A stretch of DNA of 64,000 nucleotides from Enterobacteria phage P922. The stretch is taken from sequence record OR999189.1; one strand, written 5' to 3'. This document shows positions 5,239-18,063 of the stretch, in pieces; position 1 is the stretch's first letter; every line of letters starts with the position of its first letter. The position numbers and the translations under genes are program-made. The notes beneath the pieces are model-generated. The model was not told where the DNA came from and ran no database searches. It worked only from the letters and a program-made list of their open reading frames with translations.

Positions 5239-5514
5239 ATGTTTCCGACTTACTCTAAAATCGTAGAAGTAGTGTTTAGCCAAATTATCGCTAATAACAT
5301 GTTTGAAAAGCTTGATAACGCAGCTGAGCTTCGAATTCATGCTCAAGTGACTCATGTATTGAACGCTTTGCTTCCAGACCAAGTGGATTCTATTGCAATT
5401 ACGCTGTATCCAGGTTCCGCGCATATCATTGTCGTATTCGGTCTTGATGCTGAGCTAGTCATCAAAGGCGATATTCGTTTTGAATCGCAGACAGCAGAAT
5501 TCAAAGCAATTTAA
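5239..5514 (+). CDS. Hypothetical small protein, 91 aa (cd.x cluster)
   Basis: ORF in compact early operon. Confidence 0.5.
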   Translation: MFPTYSKIVEVVFSQIIANNMFEKLDNAAELRIHAQVTHVLNALLPDQVDSIAITLYPGSAHIIVVFGLDAELVIKGDIRFESQTAEFKAI

Positions 5515-5516
5515 CA

Positions 5517-5555
5517 GTTTACTTTAAGGTAGAGTTGTGATATTATAGCTCTACC
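5517..5555 (+). promoter_or_regulatory. T4-type early promoter (GTTTAC, 18 bp, TATTAT) with 7-bp inverted repeat enclosing the -10
   Basis: GTTTAC 5517-5522, TATTAT 5541-5546, GGTAGAG 5528-5534 / CTCTACC 5549-5555. Confidence 0.55.
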
Positions 5556-5576: not shown

Positions 5577-6104
5577 ATGAGCGAATGGTTTGAAGAAGAT
5601 AAGGTTTATCGCTTTAAAGCTGGATATAAAGATATTTTTAATGAAACTTGTGGGGCTAATAAACGAATTGCCCAGTTTATTGGGGAAAATTCATTTAAAG
5701 TAAAAATAGATCCTGCGAAAAATGTTATTAGTATTAAACGCGAAATTGACGATTGCTGGTATAAAGCTGTTGATGTAATGGGCGAATCTTATAAAGATAG
5801 CCCGCTATTTTCAATTACTTATATGTCAGAATATTATTTTTTCGAAGAAGTTCAAAAAGATGACTCTATCAGTAAATTTGAAATTAAAACTGATAAAGAA
5901 ATTAAGTGGAAAGTAGTAGGTATTACTGGTTGTATGTTTTATATCTATGCTCAAACTGATACGAAGGAAGAAGCTAAAAAGAAAGCTCTAGAATATCTTG
6001 AAGAGTATGAAGAAGGCCCGGTAATGATTACCCAAGATGCCGAATTAGTTTCTGTCAAATTAGTTAAAAACGTTGAAAGTAAGGAGCTAGGATCAACATG
6101 CTAA
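5577..6104 (+). CDS. Hypothetical protein, 175 aa (cd.x cluster)
   Basis: ORF with SD GAGGAA upstream, own early promoter. Confidence 0.6.
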   Translation: MSEWFEEDKVYRFKAGYKDIFNETCGANKRIAQFIGENSFKVKIDPAKNVISIKREIDDCWYKAVDVMGESYKDSPLFSITYMSEYYFFEEVQKDDSISKFEIKTDKEIKWKVVGITGCMFYIYAQTDTKEEAKKKALEYLEEYEEGPVMITQDAELVSVKLVKNVESKELGSTC

Positions 6105-8995: not shown

Positions 8996-9000
8996 GTTGA

Positions 9001-9029
9001 GGACTCCTTCGGGAGTCCTTTTTTATTTT
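9001..9029 (+). terminator. Rho-independent terminator
   Basis: GGACTCC-TTCG-GGAGTCC hairpin followed by TTTTTTATTTT. Confidence 0.75.
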
Positions 9030-9047: not shown

Positions 9048-9099
9048 TGTTTACAGTATGGTTCCTTTGTGATAGTATTATCTTACACAAACAAAGGAG
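9048..9099 (+). promoter_or_regulatory. T4-type early promoter with inverted repeat pairing spacer to downstream SD
   Basis: GTTTAC 9048-9053, -10 near 9072-9078, TCCTTTGTG 9063-9071 vs CACAAACAAAGGA 9086-9098. Confidence 0.5.
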
Positions 9100-9105
9100 A
9101 ATAAA

Positions 9106-9429
9106 ATGAAAACGATTAATCTGAACGCTACAGTTAAAACTAAATGCTTCAATGGTAAATATGATGAAACTATGTGGTTCTTAATGGCAGTTGAAGGTGA
9201 TATTATTGAAGTAGAAACAACAGAAGGTATGGGAACAGATTTCACCTTTACAATTCAAGTTCATAATTTCTTTACTGGTTGGATTTATGAATTGAATACA
9301 GTAATCGTTGGAAAAATTGAACAAAATGAATTAGGTGAATGGTATTATGTTACAGCGCGCCAACGTGCCGAACGCTTAATTGAGAAGATGAAAAAGTTGG
9401 TAAACTTGACATGCAGCACTGGAAAGTAG
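9106..9429 (+). CDS. Hypothetical protein, 107 aa (T4 30.8 position)
   Basis: ORF with SD AGGAG, preceded by early promoter. Confidence 0.6.
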   Translation: MKTINLNATVKTKCFNGKYDETMWFLMAVEGDIIEVETTEGMGTDFTFTIQVHNFFTGWIYELNTVIVGKIEQNELGEWYYVTARQRAERLIEKMKKLVNLTCSTGK

Positions 9430-9439
9430 TAAAATAATT

Positions 9440-9479
9440 GTTTACTTTGGTACAGGATATGATATTATATACCTGTACC
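9440..9479 (+). promoter_or_regulatory. T4-type early promoter (GTTTAC, 17 bp, TATTAT) with perfect 8-bp inverted repeat enclosing -10
   Basis: GTTTAC 9440-9445, TATTAT 9463-9468, GGTACAGG 9449-9456 / CCTGTACC 9472-9479. Confidence 0.6.
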
Positions 9480-9504
9480 GCAATTAAACATCTCGGAGAA
9501 TAAA

Positions 9505-9870
9505 ATGAACTACATCAACTTTGAACGTAAATATGTTTCTAACGGTATTGCAGGTTCTATTGATACTATCTGCCTTTGGAAACATCAAAATGGATCAGTA
9601 TGCGAAATTGAACAGTATATGACTCCTAATTACGTTTATATGCGATTTGAAAATGGCATCACGGTTTCAATCACGAAAGAAGGTTCTTCTTTTAAAATCG
9701 CATTAGATGATGATTTTCGTCAACGTGATTTAGGTACCCATCCTTGCTGGAACGGCGTTAATCGTAAGCTTCTGGTTAAAACTTGGATTCGTCATATTCT
9801 GAGTAACAGAGCTAAACCTGAGCATCTTGAAGCAATCTTTGATGTAGTTCTTAACGAATTTGATATTTAA
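9505..9870 (+). CDS. Hypothetical protein, 121 aa (T4 30.7 position)
   Basis: ORF with SD GGAGAA. Confidence 0.6.
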   Translation: MNYINFERKYVSNGIAGSIDTICLWKHQNGSVCEIEQYMTPNYVYMRFENGITVSITKEGSSFKIALDDDFRQRDLGTHPCWNGVNRKLLVKTWIRHILSNRAKPEHLEAIFDVVLNEFDI

Positions 9871-15945: not shown

Positions 15946-18003
15946 ATGGAACTTATTACAGAATTATTTGACGGCGCTTCGGCGCCGGTTGTTAACTTAA
16001 ACCCGAAGCATAAAATACCTCAAATTTTTGCTATTCAAGCAGGTGAAGAAAGCGTGCTTCCTGGATTTAGATTTTGTACATACACCTCTGGCGGTGATAC
16101 AAATAAAAACGTTAAGCCAGGCGATAAAATGATGCATATCGTAATGATAGGTGTCAATGAAAAGCTATCATTAGTTAAACTTAAAAACTTAGGTGGAAAT
16201 CCAATTGGTGTCATTAATGCGGTTTTTGATACTGCTCTTCAAACAATGAAACAGTATAAAATTGATGCATGCTTATTCCGCGTACTAAAGAGCAAAACAA
16301 ATGGAGCTGCTCGTCAAATGCAAGTTATTGCCGACCGTTTAGTACGTACTAAAGGAGCAGGTCGATATGTTCTTTTAAAGGAAATCTGGGACTATGATAA
16401 GAAATATGCATATATTATGGTTTACCGCAAAAATGCCAATTTAGAAGACATTCCAGGTGTACCTCCTATTTCAACTGAGTTATTCACAAAGGTTGAATCA
16501 AAGGTTGGTGATGTTTATGTAGATGTTAAAACAGGTAATGCTGTTCCTAAAGCTGTTGCTGTTGCTGCTTCTATTGCTTTAGAAAATGATAAGCGCACAG
16601 ATCAAGCTGTAATTCAGAAAACTAAAATTAGTCGTCGATTAGCAGCACAAGCTCAATACTCTACTGTCGATGCTTCACTTCAGGGTGATAGCTTCGCCGC
16701 TAAGAAATATCAAGAGTTTGAATCTAAAGTTCCGGTATATAAAGCAGAAGGACCAATGAACTCCGGCGTTATTCAGGTTGGTTCAAACTTCAGCAAAGGA
16801 GCTATCGGTGGTATGAGGAGTGCTTCTCGTTTTAAATCTAGTGATTATGAACTAGAAAGCTTCCGAAATCATATTGCATTGGCCCATGCGCGTTTACGTG
16901 ATCCATCTATTAAATTACAGAGCGATATAACATATCAAGGTTCTCAAGAATATTTAAAGAATAAAGAATTTTTTGATTATAAAACTGATAAAATTTTAAG
17001 CGATCTTGCTGACATTAATATTTCTAATAGCTTTGATGTTATTAAGAAAATTGTCAATGATTTAGTTAAAGGTTCTAAAGCCACGCCAGACGAAAAGGTA
17101 GCTATTGTTCAATTTGTCATGAATGGCATTTATAAATTGATTAATGAGTCTGCTTCTCAAGCGTATGAATATGCAAGTACTGAAGTACCCCCAAAAGGAT
17201 TAACTCAGGCTGAGTCTGATGTAATTGAAGATTATTGCGCGGATTCATATGTTGAAATGAACTCGTTCCTTTTAGGTAAACCGGATTCTACTCGTGAAGA
17301 ATACATGGAACGAGCTATTAAACACATCGAGACAATGGATTCTGCCTTTGCCAAAGGATCAGTTCTTCCTCCAGGAACTACGCTTTATCGTGGACAAGAA
17401 GTTACCTTTAAAACTTTACGTCATAATATTGAAAATAAAATGTTCTATTTTAAGAACTTCGTATCCACATCGCTTAAACCAAATATCTTCGGTGAGTATG
17501 GTAAAAACTATATGGCTCTAGATGATTCCAGTACAGTATTTTCTGGTGAAGGAGAAGGTTCAGTTGACGCAGAAGATTTGATGCATATGGGCAGTCATTC
17601 TTCTTATGCGAATGAAGATGCTGAAACTAGCGTGGGTATGGTAATTAAAGGAGCTGAGCGAATCAAAGTTATCGTTCCGGGTCATTTATCAGGATTTCCA
17701 TCAGAAGCTGAAGTTATTTTACCACGTGGAATTTTGCTGAAGATTAATAAAGTGAGTACGTACATGATGAAAGAAACTGCTTATAACAAGTATTTAATCG
17801 AAGGCACAATCGTTCCTCCTTCTGAACAATTAGAAGAATCGGTATATGATGGCGATCATCTGATGGAAACTGGTGAAGTTCGTCCAATGGCTGGGTTTAA
17901 TCAATTCCTTGTAGAAGAATCAAAAGAAGAGGAAAACGAAGTTTCTCAAATCTTAGCTTCTTTGGTTAACATCAACGGAATGTCTAAAAAGTTCAAGATG
18001 TAG
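15946..18003 (+). CDS. Alt-like ADP-ribosyltransferase paralog, 685 aa
   Basis: Same N-terminus MELITELFD, conserved blocks and ART motifs (TLYRGQ, FVSTSL, EAEVILPRG), divergent middle; starts 3 bp after alt stop. Confidence 0.85.
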   Translation: MELITELFDGASAPVVNLNPKHKIPQIFAIQAGEESVLPGFRFCTYTSGGDTNKNVKPGDKMMHIVMIGVNEKLSLVKLKNLGGNPIGVINAVFDTALQTMKQYKIDACLFRVLKSKTNGAARQMQVIADRLVRTKGAGRYVLLKEIWDYDKKYAYIMVYRKNANLEDIPGVPPISTELFTKVESKVGDVYVDVKTGNAVPKAVAVAASIALENDKRTDQAVIQKTKISRRLAAQAQYSTVDASLQGDSFAAKKYQEFESKVPVYKAEGPMNSGVIQVGSNFSKGAIGGMRSASRFKSSDYELESFRNHIALAHARLRDPSIKLQSDITYQGSQEYLKNKEFFDYKTDKILSDLADINISNSFDVIKKIVNDLVKGSKATPDEKVAIVQFVMNGIYKLINESASQAYEYASTEVPPKGLTQAESDVIEDYCADSYVEMNSFLLGKPDSTREEYMERAIKHIETMDSAFAKGSVLPPGTTLYRGQEVTFKTLRHNIENKMFYFKNFVSTSLKPNIFGEYGKNYMALDDSSTVFSGEGEGSVDAEDLMHMGSHSSYANEDAETSVGMVIKGAERIKVIVPGHLSGFPSEAEVILPRGILLKINKVSTYMMKETAYNKYLIEGTIVPPSEQLEESVYDGDHLMETGEVRPMAGFNQFLVEESKEEENEVSQILASLVNINGMSKKFKM

Positions 18004-18056
18004 TTTACAAGTCCCTCGTGTTGTGTTATAATAATTTTACTTACATAACATGAGGA
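18003..18056 (+). promoter_or_regulatory. T4-type early promoter cassette (GTTTAC, 17 bp, TATAAT), near-identical to cassette at 2196
   Basis: 28 bp identical to 2196-2223, followed by similar AACATGAGG SD-containing arm. Confidence 0.6.
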
Positions 18057-18063
18057 ACACAAA

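Follow-up and report, generated by a model that had tools for sequence, protein, structure and literature searches.

In bacteriophage T4, expression of the genes e, soc, 49 and I-TevI involves sequestration of the ribosome-binding site (RBS) in read-through RNA, whereas the promoter situated inside the hairpin gives rise to a translatable mRNA; in these classical cases, the promoters are late ones and the Shine-Dalgarno sequence (SD) is located in the 3′ arm. REP-type and other intercistronic 3′ hairpins that lack a U-tract can block RNase II or PNPase following a downstream endonucleolytic cut, and the promoters of phage N4 contain hairpins with 5–7 bp stems and 3-nt loops. Truncaite and colleagues (Virology, 2006) reportedly described the region upstream of T4 gene 30 as containing early promoters and RegB sites along with a stem-loop sequence and a terminator that is conserved. 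The closest described counterparts of the elements analyzed here are the PeSL cassettes, which have been divided into five positional subclasses, including one in which the stem-loop overlaps the −10 element (Arbiol et al. 2010, PMC2839356). According to the PeSL authors, T-even phages possess analogues built on T4 early promoters, and the roles proposed for the cassettes are attenuation of upstream transcription and mediation of gene shuffling (PMC2839356; Comeau et al. 2014, PMC4122927). The related mobE case of RBS sequestration is cited in PMC3014915.

The window, that is, the entire stretch of 64,000 nucleotides of Enterobacteria phage P922 (OR999189.1) that was analyzed, belongs to a Tequatrovirus, or T4-like phage, with the best sequence matches being ~98.5–98.8% identical. 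The T4 early-gene strand corresponds to the + strand of the window, on which both sites and the sister cassettes described below are located. Two sites are of concern here, namely, site 1, which is the early promoter of gene 30.7, and site 2, the early promoter of cd.2, both identical to those of T4. As is characteristic of PeSLs, each occupies the boundary between two genes. Site 1 is bounded by the stop codon of the gene 30.8 homologue (9106–9429) at 9429 and the start codon of the gene 30.7 homologue (9505–9870) at 9505, whereas site 2 lies between the stop codon of cd.3 (5239–5514) at 5514 and the start of the next open reading frame (ORF) at 5577. Pfam family assignments were confirmed for 30.8, 30.7 and cd.3, and no Pfam family was found for the 175-aa product of the ORF at 5577–6104, which separates the site 2 promoter from cd.2. 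Relative to T4, this ORF is inserted straight after site 2, at the place occupied in T4 by cd.2; it has no counterpart in T4 and e11/2, and is present in several relatives (L017–L020, L053).

The original prediction that perfect inverted repeats enclose the −10 elements of two early promoters, at 9449–9479 and 5528–5555, holds to the base, and the GTTTAC −35 elements are separated from TATTAT by 17 bp (site 1) and 18 bp (site 2), exactly as claimed. At site 1, the −35 hexamer (9440–9445), which is the same in T4, is followed by a spacer that includes the 5′ arm GGTACAGG (9449–9456, about −26 to −19), invariant in eight distinct orthologues. The 15-nt loop (9457–9471) holds the TG of the extended −10 element (9460–9461) and TATTAT (9463–9468); it is a quasi-palindrome and, in RNA, undergoes further pairing. 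The 3′ arm CCTGTACC (9472–9479) contains the predicted transcription start (9475–9477), which was placed by the position of the −10 element and by homology with T4 Pe133295. The full RNA hairpin (9448–9480) is predicted to consist of 14 pairs with one bulge and a UAUU loop, at −16.1 kcal/mol, and ends 15 nt before the SD of gene 30.7, GGAGAATAAAA (9495–9505). Site 2, located downstream of cd.3 and orthologous to T4 Pe133295, is similarly organized: GTTTAC (5517–5522), the 5′ arm GGTAGAG (5528–5534), a 14-nt loop (5535–5548) with TG at 5538–5539 and TATTAT at 5541–5546, and the 3′ arm CTCTACC (5549–5555). The predicted RNA hairpin coincides with the repeat (5528–5555) and comprises 12 pairs, including 3 G·U, and an AUAU loop, at −16.3 kcal/mol. 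The same sequences are found at both sites in T4, the record of which names the site 2 promoter Pe133295; the T4 start coordinate 133295 is the fifth base, A, of CTCTACC (A5553 in the window), and in the annotation of a relative this position carries a 'predicted early promoter'. An independent consensus scan called TG-extended promoters at 5518–5546 and 9441–9468. Thus, the strong intergenic early promoter of a PeSL is present in both cases (GTTTAC, a 17/18-bp spacer and TGnTATTAT). In addition, a near-consensus σ70 site (TTGACA, 18 bp, TAAAAT; 11/12 matches) is found in the 3′ end of 30.8, at 9406–9435, 34 bp upstream of site 1. In transcripts initiated there, the complete hairpin would be close to the 5′ end; this site is not conserved in the Mosigvirus and Dhakavirus relatives.

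The inverted repeats at both sites are real and non-random. The early strand of the whole T4 genome was searched for strict sites (GTTTAC, a 17/18-bp spacer and TAnnnT), and each of the 23 sites was scored by its longest perfect repeat around the −10 element: the repeat reached 6 nt or more at 10 sites, 7 nt or more at 7 and 9 nt or more at 3, with a maximum of 14 nt at the ipII promoter. After shuffling of the unconstrained positions, a repeat of 7 nt or more was present at 0.33 sites on average, and the observed seven were reached in 0 of 2000 shuffles. The same search at random positions of the T4 genome gave repeats of at least 7 nt in 2.4% and of at least 8 nt in 0.9% of the cases. In a metagenome scan with the promoter-only pattern, which returned mostly unrelated bacterial promoters and was used solely as a negative control, only 5 among the ~120 listed unrelated sites with the same −35/TG/−10 pattern (~4%) had at least 7 nt; hence, the symmetry is not a by-product of the promoter consensus. 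Prediction of RNA folding likewise gives stable stem-loops within both promoters, as expected of PeSLs, with z-scores of −5.2 for site 1 and −7.5 for site 2 and none of 200 shuffles folding as well in either case. All five early-type promoters of the window (2196, 5517, 9049, 9440 and 18003) have the −10 element enclosed by a hairpin. Nevertheless, about half of the T4 early promoters lack such a hairpin, which is therefore dispensable. Two T4 promoters without a hairpin around the −10 element, Pe2422 and Pe50937, abut the upstream gene and share a small hairpin, CCACA-agga-TGTGG, wholly inside the spacer, an arrangement that matches another published positional subclass of PeSLs.

Lack of conservation of the symmetry in related phages would have spoken against a function; instead, the structure is conserved while the arm sequences turn over. 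The arms of at least 10 T4 early promoters are unrelated to each other (for example, GGTACAGG, TCCTAGAATTGTGA, AGTTGACAAGATT, GACAAGACT, ATAGGCT and GGGACC). Upstream of 30.7, T4 and phages of the genera Mosigvirus and Dhakavirus have common arms, T2 has a different promoter with the arms TTTGTG/CACAAA, and the arms of a Karamvirus are CTCCGTTGTAT/ATACAACGGAG. For cd.2, the corresponding arms are AGGGTTAT/ATAACCCT in phage S16, and Mosigviruses display G·U variants of the pairing. In the site 2 orthologue of the Dhakavirus IME08, which is followed by a different gene, the promoter is kept and the pairing is down to ~4 bp, so that in at least one lineage the hairpin is dispensable. Natural single-base variants of the arms (L006, NHEP36, L022/UGJNEcP2) all yield G·U pairs. 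Because the two sites could not be placed in one pairing register in a joint alignment, their families were counted separately. Among the site 1 orthologues, 98.1% of the cells are paired, compared to 29–43% with the partner slid, and among those of site 2, 84.5% compared to 35–56%. All single changes at site 1 are to G·U or U-A, as are most of those at site 2, where unpaired cells, largely from IME08 and S16, are found as well. The double changes among the orthologues are A-U to G-C and G-C/U·G/U-A. Covariation is weak, given the small samples: site 1 shows one covarying pair, with the observed value reached in 12 of 500 shuffles, and site 2 one A-U to G-C double change, with the observed value reached in 98 of 500 shuffles, which is not significant. 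A search of IMG/VR for relatives produced only 14 and 6 loci, with nearly invariant arms.

The two strands of the repeats are not equivalent. The antisense strand of site 2 folds at only −8.8 kcal/mol, compared to −16.3 kcal/mol for the sense strand, and, among the T4 promoters whose −10 element is surrounded by at least 6 pairs (15 in all), the sense strand is more stable by a mean of 4.05 kcal/mol versus 0.69 kcal/mol in controls (Mann-Whitney P=0.006), the stems of these promoters holding 20 G·U pairs. This bias could partly stem from the GT-rich consensus 5′ of the −10 element, which can pair through G·U with the AT-rich −10 sequence, and so may not reflect selection. With this qualification, the G·U pairs and the greater stability of the sense strand point to RNA, and the inverted repeat most likely acts as an RNA structure rather than as a DNA binding site.

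Among the three readings that had been offered for the symmetry, namely, that it marks an operator recognized by a dimeric regulator, an element prone to cruciform formation or the stem of a cassette of the PeSL type, only the last is supported, the −10-overlapping stem-loop being a published PeSL subclass. Like PeSLs, both sites combine an intergenic early promoter, a stem-loop and the SD and start codon of the next gene, and are tied to insertions, deletions and module boundaries. They differ in several respects. The stems of RB49 and phi1 PeSLs are of the G(n)...C(n) type and stand beside σ70 consensus promoters, whereas here the arms are of mixed sequence and the −35 element is GTTTAC. Furthermore, the stems of PST and T4 are depicted as 'just upstream' of the promoter (2014 figure legend, PMC4122927), whereas those described here straddle the −10 element and the transcription start.

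The geometry of the sites suggests what such an RNA hairpin might do. Because the transcription start is inside the 3′ arm, RNA initiated at the promoter itself lacks the 5′ arm, and only read-through RNA can fold. In most of the T4 hairpin promoters that were checked, the upstream stop codon is 0–3 nt from the −35 element (~2 nt in T4 at the two sites considered here), with no terminator in between; the respective gene pairs are rnlA/alc, cd.3/cd.2, 30.8/30.7, e.8/e.7, vs.3/regB and 41/dmd. With a stop codon beside the −35 element and no intervening terminator, read-through is certain. The position of the repeat also has a simple rationale: the ~70-nt intergenic space is filled by the promoter and the leader, and only the spacer and the start region can vary freely, so that the hairpin must enclose the −10 element.

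Under the model we propose, each site would represent a T4-type early promoter (UP/−35 GTTTAC/TGn/−10) fused with a stem-loop. The transcript of the promoter itself, missing the 5′ arm, would stay unstructured, whereas the read-through transcript from 30.8 or cd.3 would fold into the hairpin of about −16 kcal/mol, ~12 nt past the stop codon. The hairpin would then serve as an intercistronic boundary that stops 3′-to-5′ exonucleases entering after the downstream leader has been cut, so that the upstream message would be independent of what happens to its downstream neighbor; weak attenuation of read-through is a further possible effect. RegB would be responsible for the cut at site 1, at GGAG, 15 nt beyond the hairpin. 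The SD of 30.7, GGAGAATAAAA, agrees at every position with the consensus for strong RegB cleavage, GG*AGRAYARAA (PMC3014915), the 30.7 transcript of T4 has served as a RegB target in experiments (PMC9409239), and host exonucleases attack the 3′ ends that RegB generates (PMC3014915). The SD of site 2 is not a GGAG RegB site; thus, the involvement of RegB cannot be generalized, and another nuclease would be needed there. The hairpin itself is not a RegB recognition element, given that site 2 lacks GGAG and RegB needs no information 5′ of GGAG (Durand 2006). The likeness to REP-type stabilizers is in the placement of a hairpin without a U-tract just downstream of a coding region, at site 1 with a documented RegB cut 15 nt downstream; the difference is that the element is superimposed on a promoter and is known here from the sequence. 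For PeSLs, the authors assigned the stem-loop the role of a terminator or attenuator, not of a decay barrier. Our literature search did not find a genome-wide map of T4 transcript 3′ ends. Both the folding of the hairpin in vivo and its action as an exonuclease barrier are deduced from predicted structure, and we give the interpretation of these PeSL-type promoters as RNA hairpins that form intercistronic decay boundaries an even chance of being correct.

A more general version, possible but rather doubtful in our estimate, is that hairpins straddling the start site systematically mark the origin of the transcript in about half of the T4-type early promoters. RNA started at the promoter would be unstructured, and RNA arriving from upstream would carry the hairpin, which, in one class, would mask the RBS and, in the class considered here, would form a decay or processing boundary beside a site for RegB or RNase E. 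For each gene, the identity of the promoter would in this way be linked to translation and to the lifetime of the mRNA as the phage passes from early to middle expression.

The role favored by the PeSL authors, in which the nascent hairpin formed on read-through acts as a terminator or attenuator that stops or lowers transcription arriving from upstream promoters and limits cumulative over-expression of downstream genes, appears rather unlikely at these sites. Placed between a promoter and lacZ, one phi1 stem-loop lowered expression about as much as the rrnB T1 terminator (Arbiol et al. 2010, PMC2839356), and the hairpins described here are stable, at about −16 kcal/mol; the phi1 stem that was assayed is, however, G/C-rich and of a different type. 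Rho-independent terminators share with the two elements a stable RNA hairpin shortly past a stop codon, but the U-tract is absent here: the 3′ flanks of the two hairpins are GCAATTAAAC and AAAACAAATG, with no T-run, and none of the start-site-proximal T4 hairpins is directly followed by one. The terminator scan also found nothing at either site, although it detected the terminator at 8999–9020. Taken together, the missing T-runs and the blank scan indicate that the hairpins are not intrinsic terminators, and the terminator role proposed for PeSLs is unsupported by the sequence at either site. The element at 8999–9020 is an intrinsic terminator of the canonical kind, in which the hairpin GGACTCC-UUCG-GGAGTCC, with its UUCG loop, precedes a T-run; it is located after 30.9, immediately before the 9049 promoter, and is conserved in T2.

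It is also conceivable, although unlikely, that the cassettes are recombination modules without any RNA role, serving in the shuffling of genes between T4-type phages either as a stretch of homology or as something for a structure-specific protein to target, with the symmetry maintained by templated repair of quasi-palindromes. Association with module boundaries is indeed evident. In alignments with divergent phages, the homology starts precisely at GTTTAC, at position 9440 of the window, and the 175-aa ORF is inserted straight after site 2 relative to T4. A 15-nt block, GGAGAATAAAATGAA, is identical at 9096–9110 and 9495–9509, before both 30.8 and 30.7, and in T2, which is missing both 30.8 and the site 1 promoter, a 9049-type promoter is joined to 30.7 at this very block, a junction that looks like a deletion by recombination between two cassettes. 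The inserted ORF, the T2 junction and the GTTTAC breakpoints fit the shuffling role published for PeSLs, for which mini-circles have been reported as well. However, homologous recombination requires homology, not dyad symmetry, and the arms differ between cassettes, so that the stems contribute little homology; moreover, the strand asymmetry created by the G·U pairs is unexpected for an element acting at the DNA level or maintained by templated repair.

Discrimination at the level of translation, whereby the hairpin and its extensions would lower downstream translation on read-through RNA and the gene would be translated mainly from its own promoter, is quite improbable for the two sites. This mechanism is plausible for the three sister cassettes of the window, each with an early promoter inside the hairpin: 2196–2252 (T4 Pe136300), with the SD in the 3′ arm; 9049–9099, upstream of 30.8 (T4 Pe123057), with the hairpin reaching the SD; and 18003–18058, in the alt.-3 region (T4 Pe62761), with an SD-occluding hairpin. 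In the read-through RNA of these cassettes, the accessibility of the initiation region is predicted to fall to ~0.4–0.75 of the value for the own transcript, depending on the cassette, with at least half of it lost in the majority of cases, and thus they fit the logic of T4 e, soc, 49 and I-TevI, but with early promoters. The two sites share with the latter genes a promoter within a hairpin and a structure that exists only in transcripts started upstream, whereas the 3′ arm of site 1 ends 15 nt before the SD, and at neither site does the 3′ arm pair with the SD or the start codon. The predicted unpaired probability of the site 1 initiation region is 0.63 in its own RNA versus 0.64–0.75 in read-through RNA, that is, unchanged, and SD occlusion is accordingly rejected for this site. 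For T4 site 2, the predicted change is small (0.52 versus ~0.41), and the remaining start-site-proximal T4 hairpins have ratios of ~1. In the window, accessibility at site 2 is predicted to drop from 0.79 to ~0.35 upon read-through, owing to pairing of the 3′ end of cd.3 with the leader of the inserted ORF. The original distinction between the two sites and the SD-occluding cassettes therefore stands for site 1, whereas at site 2 of the window initiation does become less accessible, albeit through pairing outside the repeat.

Recognition of the symmetric −10 DNA by a dimeric or structure-specific protein, for instance to switch off early promoters, is very improbable, and the operator and cruciform readings offered initially fare accordingly. 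The half-site centers are 21–23 bp apart, about two helical turns, and the shut-off of T4 early promoters, which is independent of AsiA and ModA, is still unexplained (PMC2988021). Dyad symmetry at the promoter core is also found in lac O1, the lambda operators and the N4 hairpin promoters; here, by contrast, there is no common half-site, the strands are asymmetric, and the promoters are used by the host σ70 polymerase rather than by a hairpin-recognizing one. Half-site sequences are not common to the co-regulated early promoters of T4, the arms of which are unrelated, so that a shared operator is rejected; the repeat is missing from about half of these promoters, and unrelated arms are substituted at orthologous sites in other genera. 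Conservation of the structure in the face of sequence turnover speaks against an operator recognized by a single protein. Furthermore, the G·U pairs of the stems are mismatches in DNA, and the glucosyl-hydroxymethylated cytosines of T4 hinder reading of the major groove (PMC2988021). A cruciform would call for long arms with little space between them and for DNA hairpins that are stable on both strands, whereas the perfect arms are 7–8 bp long and 14–15 bp apart, and the DNA hairpins reach only −5 to −8 kcal/mol (−8.4/−7.6 and −5.2/−4.8 kcal/mol for the two sites).

Finally, a phase-variable switch, in which the loop between the arms flips and thereby moves or destroys the −10 element, is scarcely credible, even though the T4 GenBank record describes the 14-bp loop 133300–133313 (NC_000866; window 5535–5548) as 'inverted complement of previously reported sequence': BLAST searches with flipped-loop queries for both sites found no flipped loop in ~700 T4-like genomes, the best full-length matches (93.8% for site 2 and 96.2% for site 1) being equal to the values for the native orientation. 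The older inverted T4 report is probably a sequencing or cloning artefact at the hairpin; cloning strong T4-type promoters in intact form is difficult (PMC2839356).

Given that both sites are T4's own promoters and that the combination of a promoter with a stem-loop is a published design, they do not represent a new kind of element but belong to a known one, the PeSL, and in T4 both are known promoters. What the present analysis adds is that this design is statistically pervasive in T4, that selection may operate on the RNA of the sense strand, as suggested by the strand bias, and that the hairpins fall into two geometric classes, of which the one represented at both sites is neither an intrinsic terminator nor an operator. 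From a practical standpoint, such cassettes are compact, portable promoter-insulator parts. Should the decay-boundary model, or its extension to the marking of transcript origin, be true, it would explain how neighboring early messages within one read-through unit come to have different lifetimes, and why the cassettes move as complete units during gene shuffling between phages.
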